Positions 8,232-29,562 of a DNA stretch of 32,000 nucleotides are shown piece after piece (the stretch's first letter is position 1; the number at the start of each line of letters is the position of its first letter). Origin of the DNA: Candidatus Peribacter riflensis (GTDB lineage Bacteria; Patescibacteriota; Gracilibacteria; Peribacterales; Peribacteraceae); assembly GCA_001430755.1 (NCBI GenBank), contig CP013062.1:960001-992000 (forward strand), read 5' to 3'. Under the pieces are notes generated by a model. It saw nothing but the letters and a program-made list of their open reading frames with translations, was not told the DNA's origin and searched no databases. The position numbers were made by a program, and so were the translations under genes.

Positions 8232-8321
8232 CGGGGAAGAGTCTACGGAGGAACCTCCGTAAAGCAAAGCTGCATTGGAATTGCATCAAACATACAAAAA
8301 CAAAACAGTAAACGTAGGAGG

Positions 8322-8446
8322 GGCGCGCCATCGGGGGTGAAGGGGAAGGCCCTGCCGCGAAGCGGGATGCCGACGAGTCGGCTCCGAAGCCTTGGAGGAG
8401 CCAGCGAGGAGGCACAGGGCCTAAGCGGAGTGGGGATTGGCGCGCC
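8322..8446. other. Multi-stem GC-rich structured element (candidate small RNA or GC-rich repeat), strand unknown
   Basis: Outer stem GGCGCGCC(A) 8322-8332 pairs with (T)GGCGCGCC 8436-8446. Inner stem GGCCCTG 8348-8354 pairs with CAGGGCC 8415-8421. The inner stem encloses three short hairpins (CCGC-GAA-GCGG, GCCGA-CGAG-TCGGC, CTCC-GAAGCCTT-GGAG). No convincing ORF covers it. Confidence 0.25.
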
Positions 8447-8517: not shown

Positions 8518-8791
8518 AAAGAGAACGAAAATACGAACATCAGTTCGGCACCAGACTTACACCGTAAATAGTCTTCTCTTTCTTGACCACCTCTGCGGCG
8601 CTCTGTAGGCTTTCAGCGCTCCAAATCTCCCTATGCTCAGCAAACTCAAGTGGCGGCGACGCATGCGCAAGCATGGCTTCCTCAAGCGCCAGCAGACCAG
8701 AAACGGCCGCAAGGTCCTCGCCCGTCGTCGGCGTAGGGGGCGCAAGCAAATCGTCGTGCAGCGGAAAGGAAAGAAATAGGCAACTATCGGT

Positions 8792-8886
8792 GTATCAGTA
8801 ATCAGAGTATCAGTAATCTGTGTGTCGGCGGGTCAGAACTCGTTTTCTTTCACTGATACTCAGATATTCTGTTATTCTGATACTCC
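8792..8886 (+). promoter_or_regulatory. Operator-like array: two direct GTATCAGTAATC boxes plus two inverted CTGATAC boxes just upstream of the 8889 gene
   Basis: GTATCAGTAATC at 8792-8803 and 8807-8818. CTGATAC, its inverted core, at 8853-8859 and 8877-8883. TATTCTG direct repeat at 8865-8871 and 8873-8879. The ATG at 8889 follows directly. Confidence 0.35.
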
Positions 8887-8888
8887 GA

Positions 8889-9949: not shown

Positions 9950-9980
9950 AGGGGGAATTTCTATTTTACTCCTGATCTCT

Positions 9981-10040
9981 CCGAGTTCCCTAGTTCCCGA
10001 TTTCCCGCGTTCCCTACGCCCTACCCCCTACCCCTAACCC
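9981..10040. repeat. One-armed C3-tract tandem repeat (CCNNNTTC x4, then CCCTA-type units)
   Basis: Eight C3+ tracts on the + strand at 9988, 9996, 10004, 10012, 10019, 10024, 10031 and 10038. It spans the pheT stop codon (10014-10016). Positions 9981-9999 are the exact reverse complement of 24189-24207. Confidence 0.85.
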
Positions 10041-12374
10041 TATCTTCTCGTGCTCCTTCTTCACCTCCTCCTCCGTAAGCGTGCGGTCAGAAGCACGGTA
10101 CGTGCAGCGCACCGTCAGGTTGTACTGGCCTTTCGCCAGCTTGGCCCCCTCAAAGAGATCCACAACGGAAACATCGGCCAGCAGAGAGGAGCTCTTGCGC
10201 ACCTTTGCGAGGAAATCCGCACTCTTGTGCCCGGCATCCAGCGTGACCGTCAGGTCATACGCGATGGATGGATACTGCGCGATCGGCGAGAAGATCACGG
10301 GTTTCTCGGGCAGAGCGAGCAGACTGGTGAGATCGAGCAGCGCCACGGCCGCGCGTCCCGGCAGATCGAATGCCGAACAGACGGACGGATGTAATTCGCA
10401 GACGAGGCCCATCGCTTTGCCTTCAATGAGAAAGTCTGCGCTGCGCCCCGGGTGCCCGAAGGGAGGTGTTTTCTCAGACGCGCGTATCTCGATGGAAAGT
10501 CCGCTGCCCCCGATCTCGTCTGCAACGAGTTGTTTGAGCGTCAAAAACGGTGTCTCAGAAAGCGGCAGGTTCCGGCGCTCAGCCATAAAGATGCCGCACT
10601 CCAGCCATTCCCCTTCGCGTTCATTGAACACATGGGCGCACGTGAATGTGCGCACGGCGTCCCCCACGAGCAGAAGATTCTGTGCGGCATGCTCGAGTAA
10701 ACGCGGCAGGGTGGATGTCTGGAGCACGCTCAATTCCTCTCCGAGGGCATTGAGCACGGGAAGGGCATCGGAGGGCTCCATACCGGCCTTCTTGAGTAAG
10801 ACCGGGCCGACGAGCGAGAGCGAAACGACCTCCATGAACCCCTGCGACTGCAGGCTGTCACGAAGCTTTGAAACACGCGATTCGCGGGGAGGCGGCGTCA
10901 CAGTTGCTTCGGGATAGGCAGGAGCGATGTGCTCGTATCCGGAAATGCGGCCGATCTCTTCGGTGAGATCATGCGGACCCGTGAGGTCCTTGATCCGCCA
11001 GAGCGGCGGCGTGACCGACCCGCGCGTCACCGTGCACCCCAGATCGGTGAGGATCTTCTTCGCGGTCTTCTCTGCGATTGCCACGCCGAGCAGGTGCTCC
11101 GCATCTTTGTAGGAGAAATGAATGGGCTTCACCGCACCGTCCGTCCCCCATGATTGCAGCTTCGAGGTGATCTGCGCACCGGGAATAAGGGTGAGGAAGA
11201 GTTCCAGGGCCCGCATCAATCCCTCTTCGCAACGAACGGGCGGAACGCTTTTTTCGTAGATGGTCGCCGCATCCGTGCGATGCCCGGTGGCAATGACCGC
11301 ATTGCGGATGGCAACGGCATCGACAACGGGACTGTGCAGGTAAATCTCGCGCGTCTTTTCGGTGGTGGAGGTTCTCAGGCCTCCCATGATCCCCATGAGA
11401 TCGAAAATACCGGCATCATCACTCATCACCACAGCACCAGCGGGAAGGACGCGCTCGACGGAATCGAGCGTTTGGATCTTCTCCCCCTCTCTAGCCGCGC
11501 GGATGTGCACCGCACCTCTGAAATCCTTCAGATCGAAACTGTGGAGCGGCATGCCCAGTTCTGCAGTGACGTAATTAGTGATATCGATCGGCAGATTGAG
11601 CGGCCGGAAACCGGCAGAGAGAAGGCGTCGCTTCATCCATGCAGGAGTCTCGCCGAGGCCGGAAATGCGCAGCGTGCATCCGCAGTACCGCGGAACGAGT
11701 TTCTTCTGTTCCACAACACTCTCGAAGGGAAGCGCCCCTTTGGGGAACGCGAGTGCCTTTTTCTTCGCAGGCTTCTTCCACACCGCTAATCCCAATGCCA
11801 CGCATTCCCGTGCGAACCCGATTTGCGAGAACAGATCCGGACGATGTGTAATGGCATGGTTATCGACGTGCAGGATGGCATCGGTGAGACCGAGGTATTC
11901 CCGGAGTGATGTTCCCACACCGTCAGTGCCATCCCCCAGATCCACGATGGCGTGCCCCGTCGCCGTGGGGAACAGGTGCTCGAGCTGCAATTCCTCTGCA
12001 GCACAGATCATGCCTTCGCTCTCTTCCCCGCGGATCTTGGTCTTCTGGAGCGTCACCATCCCCTCACCATGCCACTTCACCTGTGCCCCCACGTGCGCGA
12101 ACGCCACGCGCATGCCCGTGCGCAAATTCGTCCCGCCGCAGACCACGCGCTTGGTACCCTGATCGGTTTGCACATCGCAGAGCGAGAGACGGTCGGCATT
12201 CGGGTGTTTTTTCAGAGAGAGGACTTTCCCCACACAACACCCCGTTAGCGGCGCTCCCTGCTCCTCGATCTCCTCCACTTCACCCGTCGCCACGGTCAGG
12301 CGATTGGCAATGACCCGTGGGTCTTTCTCTTTCCACGAAACGAACTCCGAGAGCCATTCGAGTGAAACTTTCAT
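10014..12374 (-). CDS. pheT: Phenylalanine--tRNA ligase beta subunit
   Basis: 786 aa from ATG 12374 (MKVSLEWLSEF...). N-terminal tRNA-binding OB domain (GKVLSLKKHPNADRLSLCDV), B3/4 and B5 regions and a C-terminal anticodon-binding-like domain. The length is typical. Confidence 0.9.
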   Translation of the reverse strand: MKVSLEWLSEFVSWKEKDPRVIANRLTVATGEVEEIEEQGAPLTGCCVGKVLSLKKHPNADRLSLCDVQTDQGTKRVVCGGTNLRTGMRVAFAHVGAQVKWHGEGMVTLQKTKIRGEESEGMICAAEELQLEHLFPTATGHAIVDLGDGTDGVGTSLREYLGLTDAILHVDNHAITHRPDLFSQIGFARECVALGLAVWKKPAKKKALAFPKGALPFESVVEQKKLVPRYCGCTLRISGLGETPAWMKRRLLSAGFRPLNLPIDITNYVTAELGMPLHSFDLKDFRGAVHIRAAREGEKIQTLDSVERVLPAGAVVMSDDAGIFDLMGIMGGLRTSTTEKTREIYLHSPVVDAVAIRNAVIATGHRTDAATIYEKSVPPVRCEEGLMRALELFLTLIPGAQITSKLQSWGTDGAVKPIHFSYKDAEHLLGVAIAEKTAKKILTDLGCTVTRGSVTPPLWRIKDLTGPHDLTEEIGRISGYEHIAPAYPEATVTPPPRESRVSKLRDSLQSQGFMEVVSLSLVGPVLLKKAGMEPSDALPVLNALGEELSVLQTSTLPRLLEHAAQNLLLVGDAVRTFTCAHVFNEREGEWLECGIFMAERRNLPLSETPFLTLKQLVADEIGGSGLSIEIRASEKTPPFGHPGRSADFLIEGKAMGLVCELHPSVCSAFDLPGRAAVALLDLTSLLALPEKPVIFSPIAQYPSIAYDLTVTLDAGHKSADFLAKVRKSSSLLADVSVVDLFEGAKLAKGQYNLTVRCTYRASDRTLTEEEVKKEHEKIGLGVGGRA

Positions 12375-13114: not shown

Positions 13115-13147
13115 GGGACACCCCTCCCTCTTCCCTCCCCCCATCCC

Positions 13148-15261: not shown

Positions 15262-15317
15262 AAGACAACAGGATACCAATGTAGGAAGTGATCCGCCTCC
15301 CCGATTTTTTTGATTAT

Positions 15318-15347
15318 CCCGGGTGCATGCCTCTGCATGCACCCGGG
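15318..15347 (-). terminator. Perfect 13-bp hairpin downstream of the L28-like gene
   Basis: CCCGGGTGCATGC-CTCT-GCATGCACCCGGG. It is flanked by a T7 run on the + strand, which is an A run on the - strand, so orientation is ambiguous. Confidence 0.45.
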
Positions 15348-15401
15348 GAAATGGGTTTGGCTCAAGCCGAAGCTTAAGCCGAAATGGAACAGGTCTCGCG
15401 A

Positions 15402-15665
15402 TCAGGCGATCCGCACATTATAGCGGTCACGCAGCCGGTTGGCCCGGAGATTGAGAGCATCGACAGCTCCACATGCCTGCACGTAAGGTTGACCGCGACG
15501 CTTGGCTCGGTTGACCTTACGTTTGAGAACTCGCGCGCAGTTGGCCAGGTAGATAGTCACCCGCCTGCGCTCCGTGTGGACCCGACGGGTCCGCAGGCGT
15601 CTATGCAGACGCCGATCGTCCTTCAGTTCTGCCACGACTTCCGAATCATGAGTTCGGCATACCAT
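15402..15665 (-). CDS. Small highly basic protein, possibly ribosomal protein bL28
   Basis: 87 aa with GGAG 9 nt upstream of the ATG. Loose resemblance to L28: early Cys, the H-RRLRTRR block versus SH..TKRR, and NCARVLKRKVNR versus SARALKSGKVER of Bacillus L28. The match is weak. Confidence 0.4.
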   Translation of the reverse strand: MVCRTHDSEVVAELKDDRRLHRRLRTRRVHTERRRVTIYLANCARVLKRKVNRAKRRGQPYVQACGAVDALNLRANRLRDRYNVRIA

Positions 15666-15849
15666 AGCTCACACTCCATCGAAGACCTGAAGCCTTCCGG
15701 GAAACCTACTCATCCACACTCCGGCAGATAAGCACTCCCAGGGGGGAGCAAAGGGTCGCCCATTCCAATGGGCAAGGAAGGCAGATCACTTTCTGAATGC
15801 AAACAATGATGTGAAGGAGCGTGTGTGATCTCTGATCTGTTCAAAGAAT

Positions 15850-15878
15850 GGAGCTGCCGTCGCGCGGGCGGCAGCTCC
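15850..15878 (-). terminator. Hairpin terminator of the microprotein gene
   Basis: GGAGCTGCCG-N9-CGGCAGCTCC lies 13 nt after the stop codon. On the minus strand it is followed by ATTCTTTG. Confidence 0.5.
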
Positions 15879-15891
15879 GAAAGAGAGGCGG

Positions 15892-16002
15892 TTAGCGGGA
15901 ACCGCGGCGGCACCGCTTTCGCGGCGCCTTTTTGGCACCATCCTTGCAGGAACACTTCTGCAGGATGTGCCCACACCGTGAGCACCTAATTTTGCGGCTC
16001 AT
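15892..16002 (-). CDS. 36-aa Cys-rich, strongly basic microprotein (zinc-knuckle-like)
   Basis: MSRKIRCSRCGHILQKCSCKDGAKKAPRKRCRRGSR. It has the best Shine-Dalgarno sequence in the window (GGAGAAAGGAG, 6 nt before the ATG) and its own downstream hairpin. Confidence 0.55.
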   Translation of the reverse strand: MSRKIRCSRCGHILQKCSCKDGAKKAPRKRCRRGSR

Positions 16003-16326
16003 GGTAACTCCTTTCTCCTGCTCTTCCTTTATGAGCAGGTCAGAGATCATAGTGGAATGAAAGATCAGGGAAGCACCCACTCTCTTTGAGGAGAGAAGGA
16101 TGCGCATCATTCTACGGGGTTTCCTTCACGCGCCCTTCTCTGCTGTAAGGCAGGGAATGGAAAACGGGCGGAGGACGTACTGCTGCAGCATGACAGAAGG
16201 TAATGTAAACATTACATCCCCGCCTGTCAAGAATGATCTGAATAGGCCATTGGAACTGCATCCTGTTCGATAAAACACAAACATAACCGGTTCGAAACAA
16301 AACAGCATACAAAAATCTACGGAAAC

Positions 16327-16412
16327 GCGCCTATGTGGCGGCGATAGCGGAGGGGGTCATAGGCGCAGCGCTTTCTTTCGTCCTTTCTTTGTCGCGCCTG
16401 ACAAAGAAAGGA
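16327..16412 (-). terminator. Two tandem hairpins downstream of ahcY
   Basis: GCGCCTATG-N22-CATAGGCGC (16327-16366) and TCCTTTCTTTGT-N8-ACAAAGAAAGGA (16381-16412). The second shares the CTTTGTCGCG...ACAAAG core with the 8494-8517 palindrome. Confidence 0.45.
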
Positions 16413-16445
16413 CAAGAATGAATAGTGCAGTAGAACATGAGCAAC

Positions 16446-18793: not shown

Positions 18794-18878
18794 AGGGAAC
18801 TCGGATTCGGGAATGAGGGAACTAGGTTCGTTTTTCAGGCCGATTTCCCTATTTCCCGAGTTCCCCATTTCCCTATCC
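18794..18878. repeat. Two-armed tandem-unit inverted repeat in the divergent pfkB/ugd promoter region
   Basis: Left arm AGGGAACTCGGATTCGGGAATGAGGGAACTAGG. Right arm CGATTTCC-CTATTTCC-CGAGTTCC-CCATTTCC-CTATCC (8-nt period). GGGAACTCGG (18795-18804) is exactly complementary to CCGAGTTCCC (18856-18865). Four C3+ tracts lie at 18847-18873. Confidence 0.85.
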
Positions 18879-18921
18879 AAACCACTGACAGAAGCACCAA
18901 TACCAGCTAAGCTGGCTCCAC

Positions 18922-20885: not shown

Positions 20886-21833
20886 ATGAAAGTTCTCCTC
20901 ACTGGCTCCGCCGGCTTCATCGGATTCCACACGGCCAAAGTGCTCCTCGCCCGCGGCGACGAGGTGATCGGGCTGGATAACTTCAATCCGTACTACGACC
21001 CCAAGCTCAAAGAGGATCGCAATGCGCAACTGATCAAGGATAAAAAGTTCACCCTCATCCGCGGCGATATCTGCGATCGCAAGACCGTCGCCAAGGCGAT
21101 GAAGGGCTGTGACCGCGTCTGTCACCTCGCGGCACTCGCAGGCGTGCGCTACGCCTTCGACCATCCGGACGAGTACATCGATATCAACATCCGCGGGTTC
21201 TTCAATGTGCTCGAGGAGGCGCGGCTGCAGAAGATTCCCGGCTTCATCTACGCATCATCGAGCTCCGTCTACGGCGGCAATACCAAGATGCCGCTCGCCG
21301 AGACCGATCGCACCGATAACCAACTCTCGCTCTACGGCATGAATAAGAAAGATAACGAGCTCATGGCGCACGTGTACCACTCGCTCTACGGCATTCCGGT
21401 GACGGGGCTGCGGTTTTTCACTGTCTACGGCCCCTGGGGCCGCCCCGATATGGCGCTCTTCGAGTTCACGGATGAGGTTTTGCACGATCGCCCACTCGAT
21501 ATCTTCGGGCACGGTAAAATGCAGCGCGACTTCACCTACATCGACGATATTGTCTCTGGAGTCGTGGCCTCGCTCGACAAGAACTATCCCGAAGAGGTCT
21601 TCAATTTGGGATGCGGTAAGACGGAAGAACTGATGGATTACGTGAAAGGCATCGAACAGGCTTGCGGAAAAGAGGCGAAGAAAGAATTCCTTCCCATGCA
21701 ACCGGGCGATGTGGTGCGCACGGAGGCGGATATCGCGAAAGCGAGGAAGATGCTGGGCTTCAGCCCCAAGACACAGATCAAAGACGGCATCCCGAAGTTC
21801 GTTGAATGGTATCGCAAGTACTACGACCTTTAG
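20886..21833 (+). CDS. UDP-glucuronate 4-epimerase (NAD-dependent epimerase/dehydratase, extended SDR)
   Basis: 315 aa. MKVLLTGSAGFIGFH, NFNPYYDPKLKEDR, SSSSVYG, YGMNKKDNELMAHVY (YxxxK) and RFFTVYGPWGRPDMA are typical of the Cap1J/LpsL-type UDP-GlcA epimerase group. Confidence 0.85.
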   Translation: MKVLLTGSAGFIGFHTAKVLLARGDEVIGLDNFNPYYDPKLKEDRNAQLIKDKKFTLIRGDICDRKTVAKAMKGCDRVCHLAALAGVRYAFDHPDEYIDINIRGFFNVLEEARLQKIPGFIYASSSSVYGGNTKMPLAETDRTDNQLSLYGMNKKDNELMAHVYHSLYGIPVTGLRFFTVYGPWGRPDMALFEFTDEVLHDRPLDIFGHGKMQRDFTYIDDIVSGVVASLDKNYPEEVFNLGCGKTEELMDYVKGIEQACGKEAKKEFLPMQPGDVVRTEADIAKARKMLGFSPKTQIKDGIPKFVEWYRKYYDL

Positions 21834-21930
21834 GGATTAGGGGTTGGGGATTAGTGTATTAGGAAACCTTGAAAAGAAGGTTTTTATTTGGCCCTAATCC
21901 CCAAGATTCCAATCCCTCATCCCTCATCCC
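21832..21930. repeat. Two-armed G3/C3-tract inverted repeat between convergent genes
   Basis: Left arm AGGGATTAGGGGTTGGGGATTAG starts inside the TAG stop of the epimerase. Right arm CCCTAATCCCC...CCCTCATCCCTCATCCC contains the TGA stop of the GT-C gene (minus strand). GGGGATTAG is complementary to CTAATCCCC. Confidence 0.85.
21864..21889 (+). terminator. Rho-independent terminator nested at the centre of the repeat
   Basis: AAACCTT-GAAAAG-AAGGTTT followed by TTATTT. Confidence 0.6.
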
Positions 21931-23128
21931 TTAGTAACGGTCTCACCCACACCTCCACCGGAACGTTCTCAAGCCGTTGCCAGCCCTCCCGCTTACGCAC
22001 ATCCGGGCAATCGGCAAGACACACGGCGATACGCGCGGAATCGATGAGGTGATAATTCGTCACATATCGACGGATGAGGTAGGGACCAGCCTCCTGCCAT
22101 TCGTGTCCGAAGGACCCTGCAATAATCGCTGTCGCCCCGACGGGTACGTTGGCCGCCTGTGCCTGCGCAAAGACCGCCGGAGCCGGAGAGGGCTGACTGC
22201 GGGGATAGGCGAACGGAATGAGAATGAAGCCACAGAGGAGCGATGAGAGTACGACCATCGCAGGCCGACGCATCAATGCCGGCGCTGAAGCCAAACCGGC
22301 AACGAGGAGCGGAGCGAAGAGGATGGCATAGTACGGCCGGAACGAGACGAAGATGAACAGGCCGACGAGCAGCAGGCTCGCCACAAGTGACCAGCGCCGC
22401 GACAGGACCATGCCGAGCGTGCCGAGGACGCTCAAGACCAGGCTCCCACCGAGCACCCAGAGCCACACCGTGCCGCGAAGAGCGAAAATCATCGTCCCGC
22501 CATCTAGATTCTGCCGCCCTGCCGTCACCATGCTCGCGAATGTCAGAGGATTGGTTGCGGTGTAGAGGAGGAGCAGAAGTATGGGACCGAAAAGACCGGA
22601 AAGACGCTGCCACTTGGGTAAGCGCATGCGCCAGAACACGACGGCCACCACCGGGAAGAAGAGGATCGCCTGATAGGCCGTGAAGAGAGAGGCCATCCAG
22701 AGGAGTGCCACCCACCCGATCATGGGCTCAAGTTCTTCGCCTTTGAGGAGCCAGTAGCAGAAGACCAGCATCTGCAGGGCCGTAATGGGAGCGAGGAGGA
22801 TTTGCCCGGCAGAGACAAAGACGCCGGCGGAGAGCACCCACAGGCTCATGAGGAGCAGGGGGGATGACGGCACGTGTTTGGGAGCGAGACCGCGCGAAAT
22901 CCACGCCGCCTGCAAAAGTGAAACGGCGAGGACAATGCGCCAGAGATACTCCTGCCCCGGAATCCACTGCGTCAGACCTATGAACCAGCGTGCGAGCGGG
23001 GGATGAGGATAGGGAATGTTGAGCAGATATTTCGCCTCATCGGTGGTCACCCCATGCCAGACATGGAGCACTGCCAGCACGACAGCGAGCAGCAGGAGGC
23101 CGAAGGCGGGATTTATAAAGCGTCGCAT
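21917..23128 (-). CDS. Polytopic membrane glycosyltransferase, GT-C fold (ArnT/PMT/GT39-like)
   Basis: 403 aa from ATG 23128 with roughly 10 hydrophobic helices. An acidic motif in the first external loop (TTDEAKYLLNIPYPHPPL) is typical of GT-C enzymes. It overlaps the stop of the upstream GT2 gene by 16 nt. Confidence 0.65.
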   Translation of the reverse strand: MRRFINPAFGLLLLAVVLAVLHVWHGVTTDEAKYLLNIPYPHPPLARWFIGLTQWIPGQEYLWRIVLAVSLLQAAWISRGLAPKHVPSSPLLLMSLWVLSAGVFVSAGQILLAPITALQMLVFCYWLLKGEELEPMIGWVALLWMASLFTAYQAILFFPVVAVVFWRMRLPKWQRLSGLFGPILLLLLYTATNPLTFASMVTAGRQNLDGGTMIFALRGTVWLWVLGGSLVLSVLGTLGMVLSRRWSLVASLLLVGLFIFVSFRPYYAILFAPLLVAGLASAPALMRRPAMVVLSSLLCGFILIPFAYPRSQPSPAPAVFAQAQAANVPVGATAIIAGSFGHEWQEAGPYLIRRYVTNYHLIDSARIAVCLADCPDVRKREGWQRLENVPVEVWVRPLLRDEG

Positions 23129-24102: not shown

Positions 24103-24152
24103 CAGGAGGCAGTGTAGCGAGTAGGAGTGATTGATGTCAGCGATTTCCTCAA

Positions 24153-24258
24153 GGGAATTAGAGAACGAACGGTTAGGGAATTCGGGTGCGGGAACTAGGG
24201 AACTCGGCTTATTTTCCATTCCGGTTACACTAATTCCCGACTTCCCTATTTCCCTCAT
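24153..24258. repeat. Two-armed tandem-unit inverted repeat in the divergent GT2/SDR promoter region
   Basis: Left arm has four G3 tracts, GGGAATTCGGGTGCGGGAACTAGGG (24176-24200). Right arm is CTAATTCC-CGACTTCC-CTATTTCC-CTCATC. It shares exact blocks with the 9981 and 18794 copies. Confidence 0.85.
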
Positions 24259-24286
24259 CACTGTTCAAGGGCAAACTACCAGCTGT

Positions 24287-25192
24287 ATGAAGATCCTCGT
24301 CACTGGATCCTCCGGCACGATCGGCACGCACCTCTGCGCAAGGCTCCTGGAGTTGAAACAAGACGTGGTTGGGGCAGATTGGGAGCCGAATAAGTGGCAA
24401 CCAACGGTCGAGAAACTCACCGTGCGCTTGGACCTGCGGCATGAAGAGGAACTGAAGAAGCTTCCCACGGATTTCGACTGTGTGATCCATCTCGCCGCCA
24501 ACGCGCGCGTCTACGAGCTCGTGGAACACCCCGACCGGGCACGCGATAATATCATGAGCACATTCAATACGCTGGAATGGGCGCGCAAAAACGGAATCAA
24601 GCGCTTCGTCTTCGCCTCTTCGCGCGAGACGTACGGTAACAGCGGAGCGGCTCAGTACACCGAAGACATGGTACGGGTCGAGAACTGCGAGAGCCCCTAC
24701 ACCGCAAGCAAGATCGCCGGTGAGGCGCTCGTGGAATCGTACCGGCGCTGCTACGGCATGGAGACGGTGATCGTGCGTTTCTCGAACGTGTACGGCATGT
24801 ACGACGACTCTGAGCGTGTGGTGCCGCTCTTCATCCGTCAGACCAAGAAGAATGAACCGCTCGTCGTCTTCGGTAAAGATAAGAGCCTGGATTTCACGTA
24901 CATCGACGATGCGGTGGACGGACTCTTGCTCATCCTGAAAAATTTCGCGAAGGCGAACGGTCAGACCATCAATCTCGCCTTCGGCGAGGCGCACCCCATC
25001 ATGGAACTGGCGGAACTCATCAAGAAACTCATGGGAAGCACCTCCGCCATCACAGCGAAAGATTCCCGCACGGGCGAAGTGACCCGCTACACGGCGGATA
25101 TTTCGAAGGCGCGCACGATCCTCGGCTTCGACCCCAAGGTGCCCTTCGCGGAGGGAGTGAAGAAGTCGGTGGAGTGGTATGGACGAGAATGA
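24287..25192 (+). CDS. NAD-dependent epimerase/dehydratase (extended SDR)
   Basis: 301 aa from ATG 24287. MKILVTGSSGTIGTHL glycine-rich loop, catalytic YTASKIAGE (YxxxK), and a typical length. The substrate cannot be inferred. Confidence 0.8.
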   Translation: MKILVTGSSGTIGTHLCARLLELKQDVVGADWEPNKWQPTVEKLTVRLDLRHEEELKKLPTDFDCVIHLAANARVYELVEHPDRARDNIMSTFNTLEWARKNGIKRFVFASSRETYGNSGAAQYTEDMVRVENCESPYTASKIAGEALVESYRRCYGMETVIVRFSNVYGMYDDSERVVPLFIRQTKKNEPLVVFGKDKSLDFTYIDDAVDGLLLILKNFAKANGQTINLAFGEAHPIMELAELIKKLMGSTSAITAKDSRTGEVTRYTADISKARTILGFDPKVPFAEGVKKSVEWYGRE

Positions 25193-25260
25193 TGAATAAG
25201 GAATTATGACTGAAGTATCTTTTCCTTCATTCTTCATTCTTAATTCTTAATTCTTACTTC
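25187..25260. repeat. A/T-rich heptamer version of the two-armed repeat between convergent genes
   Basis: Left arm is GAATGAT-GAATAAG-GAATTAT-GACTGAA. Right arm is CTTCATT-CTTCATT-CTTAATT-CTTAATT-CTTACTT. Both stop codons (TGA 25190-25192; TAA on the minus strand at 25247-25249) lie inside the arms. Confidence 0.75.
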
Positions 25261-26983
25261 TCGTCTCGTGATAGACCATTTCCAGATTCACCTCCCACAC
25301 ATTGGATGAATCGGTGCGGCCTGCGACGATGTTATCCACGGCCGTCATCGAGGTGAGCATGCTGTGGTCCTGATTGTTGTAGCGGTGCATGCCGTTTCTG
25401 CCGATCAGGTAGAGATTGGGGACACTCTGGACGAATTCCCGGACAACGTGGAGCTGATCGTAACTGCCGAAGTATGCGGGATACGCCTTGGGCATTCTGA
25501 GCACGCACGCGTCGATGACATCCTCGCTCTTGAGAAAGTGGATCTTCTCCATCTCGCCGATGCCGAATTGGATGAGCTCCTGATCGGGCTTGATCCACAG
25601 GTCCCCGCCCTCGTTCACAAAGTACTCCAGCCCGATCCACACCGCATTCTTGCGATCGGCCACAAGGTAGGGACTCCAGTTATTGAAGATTTGTACGCGT
25701 CCCACCCGCACTCCCCCCTCCTGAATGTAGATCCAGTTATCCGGCACTGATGCATCGGTATGTCTGCCATCCTGCACGTGAAGTTTTTTCAGCAGGAGAC
25801 CGATCGTGATGAAATCGCGGTACGGCAAGCCTTCCGCCACCTCCACGACTCGCGCAGGCGGATGCGGCGTCATCATGCCAATGAGATGCTTGATCGGCAT
25901 GGTGGAGAAGAAAAAATCGCACGGAATGGTCTCTTCGGTGCCCGTTTGCGTGTTTTCGAGTGTGACGGAAGTGATGCGGCCGTCTGTGAGATGCACACCC
26001 GAAACGCGCGTGCGCATGCGCACTTCACCGCCGCACGACTTCACCTGAGCCGCAACGGTCTCCCACATCTGTCCGGGCCCGTACTTGGGGTAGAAGAAGC
26101 GCGTGATGAGCGTGGTTTCGCGCTCCTGCTGGGCTTTTTTGAAATCACTGCTCAGAAGATCCTTCACGGCGTGAACAACGGCGCGCCGGAGTGACAGCCC
26201 CTGCACGCGCTGGGCGCCCCAATCCGCGCGAATTTGGCTGCAGGGAATCCCCCACACTTTTTCGGTGTAATCGCGGAAGAATGTCTCGTAGAGGCGGCGC
26301 CCGAAGCGGTTGACGAAGAAAGCATCGAGGTAGGTTTCGTCTTTGAGCCGGAACACACGCGCTTTGAGGTAGCTCAAACCGATCAGGAATGTGTTGGCGA
26401 TCCCCAACCGCAGGGCAACACGCAGAGTGATGGCGATGGGATACGGAAAGAAGTGTCTGCGATGGTAGATGCGGCTGAGTCTGGGCCGCTGGAGCATGAC
26501 CTGATCTTCCTTTTCGGGATCGGGGGCGGGACGACGAATGACGGGGGACTTGGGACTTGGGACTTGGGACTTGGGATCTGAACCTGAATCTTTTTCGAAG
26601 CCTAAGTCCTCTGTCCTCTGTCCTAAGTCCTGTACACACTCCGGCTTGCCCGCCGAAGCCTCGGCGCAGGCGGGACATAAATATTCCACCACCGCCTCTG
26701 CCGCATAATCAATCTCATGCTGCTTCTCGACCGTATCCGCAGCGGGCGCACCCTGCAGCGGCAGGATATTGAACCACCACTGCATGATCCGCTTGCTCTT
26801 ACTGAAAAATCTGTGTCCTCCCAGATCGATGCGGTTGCCTTTGTAGTTGAAGGTTTGGGCGATACCGCCGATGGCATCGGTCGCCTCGCAGACAATCGGG
26901 CGGATATCCGTACGCTTGAGAAGCTCGTAGGCAGCCGTGAGCCCCGCGGGACCGGCACCGGCAATAATGGCAACCCTAGACAT
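25247..26983 (-). CDS. FAD/NAD(P)-binding oxidoreductase (amine-oxidase / UDP-galactopyranose-mutase-like fold) with repeat-derived internal insertion
   Basis: 578 aa. N-terminal dinucleotide-binding motif [18 protein letters not shown]...GGIA...GGHRFF. Conserved blocks [23 protein letters not shown] and [12 protein letters not shown]. Confidence 0.8.
26543..26674. repeat. Intragenic composite repeat: GGGACTT x4 arm, TNNGTCC x4 arm, plus a CCCGCC...GGCGGG hairpin
   Basis: Perfect heptamers at 26545-26572, with a degenerate fifth copy to 26579. Right arm TAAGTCC-TCTGTCC-TCTGTCC-TAAGTCC ends at 26632. A 26-nt hairpin at 26649-26674 is 23/26 identical to 12754-12779. All of this is translated in frame as ...[43 protein letters not shown]... 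Confidence 0.85.
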
Positions 26984-27530: not shown

Positions 27531-28814
27531 ATGCTACACTTGCCCATGATGAAGAAGCCGGTGATCTGCATCGTGGGACTCGGCTACGTGGGCCTGCCGC
27601 TCGCGTACATCTTCGCGAAGAAAGGTTTCGACGTGCACGGGTATGACCTGAATGCCGAGCGCATCGCGGAGCTGAAGGCCGGCCATGACCGCACGCGGGA
27701 GCTGACGGAGAAGCAGTTGAAAGAGGCGACCATCCGGTACAGCGCCGATCCCGCATCCATCCACGAAGCCGATGTCGTGATCCTGGCGATCCCCACGCCC
27801 GTGGATGAGCGGAATACCCCCGATCTCACTCCTGTGAAGAGCGCCAGCTCTACGGTCGGCAAACACATGAAGAAAGGTGCCATCATCGTGTACGAATCCA
27901 CCGTATGGCCGGGCACGACGGAGGAGATCTGCGGCCCGATCCTGGAAAAGGAATCGGGGATGAAATGCGGCATCGACTTTAAGTTGGGCTACTCCCCCGA
28001 GCGCGTGAACCCGGGTGACAAGGAGCACACGATCGAGAAGATCAGAAAGATTGTCTCGGGGCAGGATACTGAAACGCTCGAGACACTCGCCGATCTGTAC
28101 GGCTCCGTGATCGACGCGGGGATTCATCGTGCCGCGAATATCAAGGTGGCCGAAATGGCCAAGGCCATCGAGAACGCACAGCGGGATCTGAACATTGCCT
28201 TCATCAACGAAGTGGCGCTTCTCTGCCATAAAGTGGGCATCGAGACGAAAGATGTGATCGATGCTGCTGCTACCAAATGGAATTTCCTCAGGTTCCTGCC
28301 AGGCCTCGTGGGCGGGCACTGCATCGGAGTAGATCCGTACTACTTAGTCGAGAAAGCGCGCCAGCTTGGTATGCAAACGCAGGTCATCACGGCCGGCCGC
28401 GCCCTCAATGACGCAATGAGCCGCCACGTCGCGGAACAGGCGACAGAAGAACTGAAGGGCACGAAGAGCCCACGCGTACTTGTGCTGGGCTTAACCTTCA
28501 AAGAGAACATCCCCGACACCCGCAACAGCAAGTCCGGTGACGTGGTGAAGCAACTGCAGAAACTCGGCTGTTCTGTAGAAGTGCACGATCCCTACATGCC
28601 AGAGGAAGTCATGCTCAAGAAAGGATGGAAATTGGGCTCTCTGCAATCAGGCCCCTACGATGCCGTGGTGCTCCTGGTCCCGCACCGGGAATACATGACA
28701 GATCTTTCAGCCCTGACCAAAGCCCTGAAGCCCAAAGGACTTCTCTACGATCTCAAAACAATCCTGCCGCGAAAGGAGATTGAGGGGAAAGGTCTGCGGT
28801 ATAAGGCACTTTGA
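27531..28814 (+). CDS. Nucleotide-sugar dehydrogenase, TviB/WbpO/CapL type (UDP-N-acetylhexosamine 6-dehydrogenase)
   Basis: VICIVGLGYVGLPLA, PTPVDERNTPDLTP, YESTVWPGTTEE, GYSPERVNPGDKEH, KVAEMAKAIENAQRDLNIAFINE and LVGGHCIGVDPYYL closely follow the TviB/WbpO family pattern. Alternative starts at 27546 and 27549. Confidence 0.88.
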   Translation: MLHLPMMKKPVICIVGLGYVGLPLAYIFAKKGFDVHGYDLNAERIAELKAGHDRTRELTEKQLKEATIRYSADPASIHEADVVILAIPTPVDERNTPDLTPVKSASSTVGKHMKKGAIIVYESTVWPGTTEEICGPILEKESGMKCGIDFKLGYSPERVNPGDKEHTIEKIRKIVSGQDTETLETLADLYGSVIDAGIHRAANIKVAEMAKAIENAQRDLNIAFINEVALLCHKVGIETKDVIDAAATKWNFLRFLPGLVGGHCIGVDPYYLVEKARQLGMQTQVITAGRALNDAMSRHVAEQATEELKGTKSPRVLVLGLTFKENIPDTRNSKSGDVVKQLQKLGCSVEVHDPYMPEEVMLKKGWKLGSLQSGPYDAVVLLVPHREYMTDLSALTKALKPKGLLYDLKTILPRKEIEGKGLRYKAL

Positions 28815-28901
28815 GGGTTAGGGTTAGGGTTGGGAAAGATGAACTATCTCTTGAAGAAACTCAAACCCAGTCTCAGCCCTAACCCTATCCCTAACCCTAT
28901 C
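28813..28901. repeat. Telomere-like (GGGTTA)n / (CCCTAN)n two-armed inverted repeat between convergent genes
   Basis: GGGTTAGGGTTAGGGTTGGG at 28815-28834 starts 1 nt after the TGA stop (28812-28814). CCCTAACCCTATCCCTAACCC at 28877-28897 adjoins the TAG stop of the methyltransferase (minus strand, 28897-28899). The arms are about 19/21 complementary. Confidence 0.9.
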
Positions 28902-29562
28902 TTCGTGCCGCCACGTAATACCCCGACGTGAGGATATTTTTCTCTGGAACCTGCTGCCGAATATCGCCATATTCGCGGCTGAGGAGCCACCCGCACCACC
29001 GCGTGACCGCCGCGAGCAGGAACCAGAAGAGCTTGAACGGCTTCCACCCCAATGTCTCACACTGAAACCCGATGCGCTGCTCCAAAACGGCGAGCGTTTC
29101 GACAGTCGACGCCTCTTCGGTGAGCTCCAGAACTTCAAAATCTTTCAAGAGGTGCCGCAGTCCGTACTTGGTGTAGCGATAGTAATCCCCCGGCACATCG
29201 TGGAGCGGAAAGATGAACCGCGTGGAGAGAAGCAGGAGCCCGCCGGGTTTGAGGACGCGGCGAAACTCGGCAATCGCCTGCGATGGCGTGTGCAGATGTT
29301 CCAGCACTTCCGTGCAGAGCACGACATCGAACGAGGCATCGGGGATCTGATGGAGGTCATGCGCATCGGCGACGATATCCACGTTGACCCCCTCGCGCGG
29401 CGCGATATCGAGCGTGGTCACCTGCGGAAAGAGATCACGGTACGAAGCGGCTCCGCATCCCACATCCAGAACGCGCTTGTCTGTCGCGTGGCGCCGCAGA
29501 AATGCCCGAAGCCGGGGGCGCGTGATTTTTCGGGTCAGGCCGATGGCATCGAGAATGCCCAC
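28897..29562 (-). CDS. Class I SAM-dependent methyltransferase
   Basis: 221 aa with a GTG start. Motif I VLDVGCGAA, then FDVVLCTEVLEHL and LKPGGLLLLS. Hydrophobic C-terminal segment FKLFWFLLAAVTRWCGWLL. Confidence 0.8.
   Translation of the reverse strand: MGILDAIGLTRKITRPRLRAFLRRHATDKRVLDVGCGAASYRDLFPQVTTLDIAPREGVNVDIVADAHDLHQIPDASFDVVLCTEVLEHLHTPSQAIAEFRRVLKPGGLLLLSTRFIFPLHDVPGDYYRYTKYGLRHLLKDFEVLELTEEASTVETLAVLEQRIGFQCETLGWKPFKLFWFLLAAVTRWCGWLLSREYGDIRQQVPEKNILTSGYYVAARR

Follow-up and report, generated by a model that had tools for sequence, protein, structure and literature searches.

Candidatus Peribacter riflensis carries, at the meeting point of two convergent genes, a palindrome of G-rich tandem repeats that abuts both stop codons (28815-28897 of the 32,000-nt stretch analysed here, contig CP013062.1, positions 960,001 to 992,000, hereafter the window). 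This element is very probably a local member of a tandem-repeat class specific to the genus Candidatus Peribacter, in which 6-8-nt tandem units, each with a G3 tract and an A/T-rich spacer, occupy the spacers between genes and mostly take the form of a G-arm, a loop and a C-arm that reach the coding boundaries. That the focal stem-loop acts as a terminator or stabiliser is a tentative proposal, suggested by its modelled fold and held at somewhat less than even confidence, and the combined reading, in which a genus repeat class supplies a shared 3′-end stem-loop at this site, seems to us evenly balanced.

The + strand gene encodes a 427-aa UDPG/MGDP dehydrogenase (UDP-glucose dehydrogenase, 27531-28814) and the - strand gene a 221-aa class-I methyltransferase (28897-29562), and the list of open reading frames (ORFs) and the Pfam-supported gene calls agree on both. 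Between 28800 and 28915 the sequence reads ...AAG GCA CTT TGA-GGGTTAGGGTTAGGGTTGGG-AAAGATGAACTATCTCTTGAAGAAACTCAAACCCAGTCTCAG-CCCTAACCCTATCCCTAACCC-TA TCT TCG TGC C.... The dehydrogenase TGA (28812-28814, + strand) is followed at the next nucleotide by the left G-arm, GGGTTAGGGTTAGGGTTGGG (28815-28834, +), in which hexamer units place four G3 tracts with loops of 3, 3 and 2 nt between them. On the minus strand the methyltransferase TAG (28897-28899) runs into the right G-arm, GGGTTAGGGATAGGGTTAGGG in minus-strand reading (28877-28897, a C-arm on the + strand), which again has four G3 tracts, here with loops of 3, 3 and 3 nt, and whose first G is the last G of the stop codon. The initial annotation had described both stops as fused to GGGTTA-type repeats with four G3 tracts per arm and 2-3-nt loops, and this description is borne out. 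Both arms consist of GGGTTA, GGGTT and GGGATA units and form a 21-nt inverted repeat, 90% complementary, with the arms 43 nt apart; the two differences between them sit in spacer positions, so that all eight G3 tracts are intact, a pattern that is not significant alone. The 42-nt loop (28835-28876) is A/T-richer, contains a small internal hairpin in the predicted fold, has no Rfam match and, in blastn against all sequence examined, finds only itself. In the minimum free energy (MFE) structure only, a weak 5-bp extension of the stem is predicted between GGCAC in the dehydrogenase 3′ end (28805-28809, +) and GTGCC in the methyltransferase 3′ end (28905-28909).

The repeat pattern is non-random and above chance: GGGTTAGGG with one mismatch allowed occurs at 17 sites in the window against 4.1 +/- 1.9 in shuffles, and four-tract motifs (G3N1-7 x4) occur 9 times against 1.2 +/- 1.1 (maximum 4). 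An assembly artefact was ruled out, because the 3,666 bp surrounding the focal element are identical in the independent assembly ERZ27254812 and two further assemblies match exactly over 15.3 kb that hold four other elements. We observed no polymorphism at the elements across those assemblies, which, as consensus sequences of apparently one widespread strain, are weak evidence on hypervariability or phase variation. A telomere or linear replicon end was likewise rejected, since the element is internal to a 440-kb contig, between two genes, and the published Ca. P. riflensis genomes (1.25 Mb, 58.5% GC; five of them closed) are reported to be circular.

Repeat arrays in the genome and its relatives

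In a 48.7-kb composite of this genome, 89.6% coding and 10.4% non-coding, we counted 18 arrays of at least three G3 tracts, with at least 10 of them in spacers or straddling gene ends, a figure that includes two arrays at 24176-24254 placed inside the N-terminus of a GT2 gene by one gene call and in intergenic sequence by another (L164). The second call has the GT2 start lying past the repeat, and homology to the sister genomes stops near 24118; the "coding" arrays are almost all found at protein termini or in this mis-called N-terminus. An array is present in 8 of the 33 spacers of at least 20 nt. The focal element is therefore not singular but one of several in the window, and its two arms of four tracts each stand beside arrays of 3, 3, 3, 4, 4, 4, 5 and ~9-10 tracts, in what is a small sample. 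The units GGGTTA, GGGTGA, GGGATTA, GGGATGA, GGGACTT and GGGAAnTn all occur in this genome and its sister species, and the likeness to telomeres that had been drawn from the focal hexamer looks incidental, GGGTTA being one of several interchangeable units. Eukaryotic telomeric TTAGGG repeats and their transcript TERRA have a propensity to form G-quadruplexes (G4s) in vitro, and the focal element has the same hexamer; however, it has only two to three units per arm, is internal, is interchangeable with other units and is unlinked to chromosome ends.

In all three true convergent spacers of the composite, inverted arms made of tandem repeats abut or overlap both stops, and a fourth +/- spacer contains a tRNA-Thr gene. 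The second of these elements (site B, 21831-21935) opens as TAG-GGATTAGGGGTTGGGGATTAG with GGGATTA/GGGGTT units, continues through a loop with an AAACCTT..AAGGTTTTTATTT hairpin and closes with CCCTAATCCCC..CCCTCATCCCTCATCCC, its right arm running to CCCTCATCCC; the last codons and the TGA of the minus-strand gene fall within the repeat. The G-strand is on the sense side at 0 nt from both focal stops, and likewise at 21831, 21919 and 10016. The third convergent spacer, between the epimerase and the amine oxidase (25193-25246, element 25190-25260), holds an analogue free of G-tracts, TGA-TGAATAAGGAATTATGA ... (TTCATTC)2(TTAATTC)2TTACTTC, again flush with or overlapping both stops. This analogue is built of GAATNAN/TTCNTTC heptamers in purine-first order, has no G3 tract, folds at -16.4 kcal/mol (z -2.3) and encodes the final codons (..SKN*) of the amine oxidase. 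Because this palindrome is G-free, the feature common to the class is the tandem-repeat palindrome, not the G4. The 6-8-nt units of the class are G-rich and on occasion A-rich.

The dehydrogenase sequence assigns the window to Candidatus Peribacter (Peregrinibacteria, Candidate Phyla Radiation), and its GC content and compactness agree with those of the published Ca. P. riflensis genomes. For comparison we used the closest genomes, four metagenome-assembled genomes of Peribacter/Peribacteraceae (L002-L005), whose dehydrogenases have 86-89% amino-acid identity; a protein search of metagenome contigs with the amine-oxidase protein returned only relatives at no more than 73% identity. Unit-junction motifs are ~8-30 times as dense within the genus as in 37 other Peribacteria loci or ~120 non-Peribacteria loci. 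At three other orthologous spacers, L002, L003 and L004 keep the succession of G-arm, loop and C-arm while units and unit numbers differ, and most of the folds at these spacers are better than those of shuffles (z -1.2 to -5.4). Site B shows a stop codon, a G-arm, a loop and a C-arm in every species, with GGGATTA units in the window and L003, GGGATAA in L002 and GGGAAATC in L004. At site C (24150-24262), the spacer of the divergent GT2 and epimerase genes, the unit number is ~3 in the window, 4 in L002 and 12 in L003, where the arms are unequal.

The focal spacer itself behaves differently. In L004 the same convergent gene pair is separated by 209 nt with no repeat and no significant fold (z +1.4), and in L002 and L005 the spacer holds an unrelated ~160-nt element and a perfect 14-bp hairpin. 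The focal element is not conserved in the sister species and is therefore not a conserved regulator of this gene pair. The dehydrogenase C-terminus, YKAL*, is the same in the sister species, whose stop is TAA or TGA without a repeat. The methyltransferase ends in ...YYVAARR* here and in ...YYVAARKS* in L004, and its stop thus comes from where the repeat begins.

When inverted repeats with arms of at least 14 nt were scored for the skew of their arms, the G-rich arm lay 5′ in 11 of the 12 strongly G-skewed ones of the genus (p = 0.006), or in 7/7 when independent sites are counted (p = 0.016), against G-first:C-first ratios of 14:14 in other Peribacteria and 22:19 in other bacteria. Because the two strands of an inverted repeat have the same sequence, either of the converging transcripts encounters its own G-arm first. 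A Szybalski-type purine bias of the sense strand was rejected as the source of this orientation, because it predicts the opposite in divergent spacers, yet the G-arm comes first there too.

The remaining members of the class extend to other kinds of location. Divergent spacers carry site C, which consists of a G-arm of GGGAAnTn octamers, a loop and CCCGACTTCCCTATTTCCC, and the element between PfkB and UDPG-DH1 (18797-18880), where GGGAAnTn octamers form GGGAACTCGGATTCGGGAATGAGGGAACTAGG, a loop and ATTTCCCTATTTCCCGAGTTCCCCATTTCCC with a fold of -38.3 kcal/mol (z -5.0). One member lies at 26543-26640 within a 578-aa amine-oxidase-like ORF (25247-26983, - strand) and reads (GGGACTT)4GGG, loop and CCTAAGTCC.. 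with AAGTCC repeats. Its fold reaches -49.4 kcal/mol on the + strand and -35.1 kcal/mol on the mRNA strand, the mismatches being compatible with G-U pairing on the antisense (+) strand and C-A on the mRNA strand. It is an in-frame insertion present in the window and L004 and absent from L002 and L003, where the alignment has a gap of 27-33 aa; the copies in the window and L004 have conserved arms and unrelated loops, and L005 has a different G/C palindrome at the insertion point.

Other arrays are unpaired. A G-array of ~9 tracts, GGGTTAGGGGTAGGGGGTAGGGCGTAGGGAACGCGGGAAATCGGGAACTAGGG, at 9950-10047 spans the PheT stop and the entire spacer to the next gene; the PheT frame enters it at 10014-10047, so that the final residues ..EKIGLGVGGRA* and the TAG are encoded by repeat units. 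Two C-strand arrays lie upstream of the window: (CCCTCA/CCCTAA)n with ~10 units (L162:1332-1393) fills the whole 62-nt spacer between cysteine desulfurase and NifU, and CCCCTACGCCCTATCCCCTACGCCC (L162:3423-3454) fills the S6-S18 spacer. Both gene pairs are co-directional and probably form operons, and their mRNA would carry the C-rich strand. The rpmH-rnpA spacer (8780-8888) contains a tandem-repeat palindrome without G-tracts, (GTATCAGTAATCAGA)x2 facing CTGATACTCAGATATTCTG..TTCTGATACTC.

Two similar sequences were seen beside start codons. At 13121-13147 a polypyrimidine tract complementary to a G4 motif, CCCCTCCCTCTTCCCTCCCCCCATCCC, reaches to 1-2 nt from the ATG that begins a predicted lipoprotein, MKRLIFLALTLLLAGC, which leaves no room for a Shine-Dalgarno sequence. 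In a distant member of the Peribacteria (L013:9933-10001), a hexamer palindrome of GGGTTG/GGGATA ... CCCTAA/CCCTAG has a C-arm that ends exactly at the ATG of a UDPG dehydrogenase, again with no Shine-Dalgarno sequence.

Folding of the palindrome and transcript ends

Folded as RNA, the focal region has a predicted energy of -47.7 kcal/mol (z -5.9) for the + strand and -49.7 kcal/mol (z -4.6) for the - strand, with 0 of 200 shuffles as stable, and folded as DNA it reaches -19.8 (z -4.4). The ~20-bp hairpin that the initial annotation had expected on read-through agrees with these values and with the 21-nt arms. Each arm also scores as a G4 motif by G4Hunter, the scoring that the annotation had called for (1.80 for the left arm and 1.71 for the right), and as isolated RNAs the arms are predicted to form G4s of -14.5 kcal/mol (left) and -12.6 kcal/mol (right) under the ViennaRNA G-quadruplex model. 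When both arms are present in one RNA and G4 folding is enabled, the MFE structure in the same model is the hairpin on both strands, and since the hairpin is ~33-37 kcal/mol more stable than the G4, the competition is one-sided. For transcripts that end in the loop, a partial hairpin (-19.6 kcal/mol) beats the G4 (-14.5 kcal/mol) on the + strand, and the G4 is predicted on the - strand (-26.7 vs -13.5 kcal/mol). The earlier idea of a G4-hairpin competition thus survives in the model for a minus-strand transcript that ends before the second arm and fails elsewhere, the hairpin being far stronger. On these predictions a G4 is plausible only transiently or on truncated RNAs.

No U-tract follows the stem on either strand, the tails being UAUCUUCGU (+) and CAAAGUGCC (-). 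A canonical Rho-independent terminator, which needs a 3-8-nt loop and a U-tract, was accordingly rejected, as had already been noted from the missing U-tract: the focal loop measures 42-43 nt, and the site is unlisted in a terminator scan. A known structured RNA family was rejected as well, the focal region giving only sub-threshold matches to microRNA precursors, of the kind expected for a generic hairpin, in Rfam 15; the sole gathering-level match to that release in the window is tRNA-Ser.

From these observations we propose a mechanism for how such elements might arise and act. Arrays would lengthen and shorten by slipped-strand mispairing, an origin that fits the differences in unit number and the unequal arms in L003, and the complementarity of the arms would be maintained by selection for pairing, by template switching within the palindrome, or by both. 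Arrays would halt at stop codons because more growth would alter proteins, and units containing TAG or TGA may occasionally provide the stop. At the focal site, a read-through transcript of either convergent gene would fold into one ~20-bp stem-loop of about -48 kcal/mol, which may give both genes a common 3′-end structure that works without a U-tract, by making RNA polymerase pause or terminate, by holding off 3′ exonucleases, or by both. Each gene would thereby be shielded from antisense read-through out of the other. The G4 potential of the arms would come along with the repeat unit and be relevant only transiently, before the C-arm is synthesised, or in transcripts that end in the loop.

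The proposed 3′-end role is supported by the way other transcripts in the region appear to end, and by RNA-seq data on analogous repeats described by Rehm et al. (PMC4692102). In a consensus scan of 20 kb, canonical terminators with a hairpin and a U-tract were not enriched (19 vs 16.9 expected) and 0 lay at gene ends, and hairpins without a U-tract follow other genes as well as a conserved element resembling a non-coding RNA (ncRNA). Several points weigh against it. The case for termination or stabilisation is drawn from position and predicted structure only, and a classical intrinsic terminator would have neither a 42-nt loop nor a missing U-tract. Palindromes of the same kind are also found in divergent (promoter) spacers and within an ORF, places in which termination would make no sense, and unpaired arrays fill co-directional spacers, so that termination cannot explain the whole class. 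A strong hairpin also appears not to be obligatory at the focal gene pair, given that L004 is without one, and the complementarity of the arms could be maintained by templated mutation without selection. Finally, the composite covers ~4% of the genome, which is a small sample.

The ncRNA-like element (..GGGGGTGAAGGGGAAGGCC..GACGAGGAGGCACAGGGCC..) is ~160 nt long, GC-rich and conserved across Peribacteria; in the window it lies at 8288-8444, on the upstream side of rpmH, with two U-less hairpins after it and hairpins continuing to ~8525. Copies were found at L002:9983-10136, L005:11585-11745, L017:1262-1439, L012:11316-11446 (- strand) and L010:13226-13314. In these five relatives it sits just downstream of a UDPG dehydrogenase, which in L002 and L005 is the spacer that in the window contains the GGGTTA palindrome. 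A six-sequence alignment gives a consensus structure of 30 pairs, 13 of them with compensatory changes, and a search of Rfam gave no match even at E<=1, which makes the element a candidate for an undescribed structured ncRNA. A further feature of the region is an interval of 1.18 kb (15262-16445) with no called gene or Rfam match, which contains a 15-bp GC palindrome at 15320-15350, possible small Arg-rich and Cys-rich ORFs on its minus strand and, at 16380-16413, downstream of AdoHcyase, a perfect hairpin, GTCCTTTCTTTGTC-n6-GACAAAGAAAGGAC, which recurs in L002 and L005.

Precedents and competing explanations

The idea that stop-adjacent G-rich inverted repeats could switch between a G4 and a stem-loop has been put forward before, in work on Xanthomonas and Nostoc. 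Rehm et al. 2015 (PMC4692102) described GGGAATC repeats in Xanthomonas and GGGGA(C/T)T (GGGGAYT) repeats in Nostoc that are spread genome-wide with a strong non-coding bias, with four units being commonest. The G-strand of these simple sequence repeats (SSRs) lies on the sense strand within 50 bp of a stop codon or overlapping it, and on the antisense strand upstream of ORFs, and in each Xanthomonas genome 70-75 convergent inverted pairs could fold into stem-loops or cruciforms. Close relatives differ in the number and sequence of the units at the same site, and both K+-dependent G4s and i-motifs form in vitro, with G4-versus-stem-loop competition discussed explicitly. Transcripts start or stop at the repeats more often than at controls in RNA-seq, and the study identified no function for them (PMC4692102).

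Judged from their sequence, the Peribacter elements appear to belong to this type: they share its tandem units of a G3-4 tract and a 3-4-nt spacer, its over-representation and non-coding bias (in the ~4% of the genome covered), the sense G-strand next to stop codons, and the inverted pairs. They differ in that the host belongs to the Candidate Phyla Radiation (CPR) and has a genome of ~1.25 Mb, in that 6-, 7- and 8-nt units, including the vertebrate-telomere hexamer, coexist, and in that inverted pairs seem dominant and also occupy divergent spacers, a location under-represented in Xanthomonas and Nostoc. The arms here are moreover flush with both stops, and a G-free analogue exists. The Nostoc unit reportedly corresponds to the cyanobacterial repeat STRR1 of Mazel and colleagues (1990). 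The Peribacteria genome paper makes no mention of such repeats, of Rho or of mismatch repair, and no paper in the literature library searched combines G-quadruplex and CPR.

Other palindromes and repeats of bacterial spacers are looser analogues. Repetitive extragenic palindromes (REPs) and bacterial interspersed mosaic elements (BIMEs) of E. coli and Pseudomonas, like the "I-shaped" U-less terminators of Mycobacterium, are imperfect palindromes past stop codons, typically of convergent genes, and have been proposed to act as a 3′-exonuclease barrier or as a terminator for both genes. The focal element resembles them as an imperfect palindrome just downstream of the stops in a convergent spacer. 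A REP is one of many copies of a conserved 20-40-nt sequence that RAYT transposases mobilise, whereas the focal class has a repeat grammar only, with no conserved sequence, and the focal element has a 42-nt loop and arms that are themselves tandem repeats. Rickettsia palindromic elements (RPEs), reported by Ogata and colleagues in 2000, form defined families whose 100-150-nt copies can sit in frame within genes; the element at 26543-26640, not the focal one, is like them in being an in-frame palindrome with presence and absence among relatives. As described in PMC4679880, the TAACTGA heptamers in the intergenic regions of marine Beggiatoaceae are abundant, lineage-specific direct repeats with a suspected post-transcriptional role, and differ from the Peribacter arrays in being not G-rich, without G4 potential and nearly all direct, not inverted. 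The SSRs of the Rehm type are the closest precedent.

The first alternative to a 3′-end function is that the arrays are a neutral or selfish by-product, in which slippage-prone, microsatellite-like sequence expands wherever it is tolerated (spacers, protein termini and tolerant loops) and the palindromic arrangement is maintained by template switching, with no role for the flanking genes. This we consider unlikely, if not strongly so. It would account for the missing focal element in the same spacer of the sister species, where unrelated sequence takes its place, for the swing in unit number at site C and the unequal L003 arms, and for arrays that turn up in every type of spacer as well as in frame in an ORF, where the element is present in two of four close relatives. 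Arrays also overlap and alter the C-termini of PheT, the amine oxidase and a 403-aa protein, and no regulatory role was seen for the analogous repeats (PMC4692102). It accounts less well for an architecture kept at three orthologous spacers over four species despite complete unit turnover, for the inverted pair in 3/3 convergent spacers and for the 11:1 bias towards G-first orientation. The focal element, moreover, is identical in every independent assembly examined and so appears not to be hypervariable, and a genome as streamlined as this one (1.25 Mb, ~90% coding) would be expected to have discarded DNA of no use.

A second alternative puts the G4 at the centre, with each arm forming an RNA G4 or a G4 in the non-template DNA right after the stop and the balance between G4 and hairpin setting termination or 3′-end stability of both genes. 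Several observations suit it: the G3 tracts number exactly four in each focal arm and are joined by 2-3-nt loops, and the arms score 1.7-1.8 by G4Hunter; the differences between the arms are confined to spacer positions, which is not significant alone; G3 tracts are the constant element over differing unit types; and the G-arm is transcribed first, which would allow co-transcriptional G4 folding, a G4 being predicted for the minus transcript that ends in the loop. Analogous repeats, too, give K+-dependent G4s in vitro and prefer four units (PMC4692102). We nevertheless regard this alternative as improbable. The hairpin wins by a wide margin once both arms are present, and on the + strand a partial hairpin is favoured even when the transcript is truncated; another convergent pair shows this architecture in the G-free GAATNAN form; certain arms, such as those at 21833 and 21914, contain no more than three G3 tracts; in the divergent spacers and two co-directional ones the mRNA would be the C-rich strand; and the element is not conserved at the focal site.

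A mobile element inserted between the genes, similar to a miniature inverted-repeat transposable element (MITE), a REP/BIME or an RPE and with the G-arrays as its terminal inverted repeats, is very improbable and largely refuted, for although the focal element is palindromic and lies in a spacer wholly unlike those of the sister species, and although the related in-frame ORF element shows presence and absence among relatives as RPEs do, no second copy of any loop or core occurs in the ~2.1 Mb examined (which include the 48.7 kb of this genome), the unit type and length of the arms vary between elements and leave no candidate for a master copy, the arm ends show no evident target-site duplication, and the 48.7 kb revealed neither a transposase nor a RAYT gene.

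Returning to the preferred reading of a genus repeat class with a shared 3′-end stem-loop, we can also imagine a wider version of it, to which we give little credence. Tandem-repeat palindromes might be a general, selected insulation of neighbouring transcription units across the genus, in which a very compact CPR genome, with no canonical terminators in the part examined, conserves structure while slippage rewrites sequence, and the G-arm-first order might reflect a co-transcriptional G4-to-hairpin switch or a G4 in the template strand of the far arm that acts as a roadblock and stops polymerases before the opposing gene.

As it stands, the analysis corrects a tempting over-reading, in that apparent telomere-like G4 switches turn out to be one case of a lineage-specific repeat grammar of a kind already described in other bacteria. 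The interest of the elements lies in the pattern that the family shows within a minimal CPR genome, with its conserved architecture, unit turnover and G-first orientation. If the hairpin function holds true, these repeats would show how an ultra-small CPR genome ends and insulates its transcripts without classical terminators. They would then keep their shape while the sequence turns over, a useful test case for selection on structure versus mutational drive, and would add to Xanthomonas and Nostoc a third lineage with G-rich SSRs, unrelated to the other two, a distribution in favour of a convergent origin.

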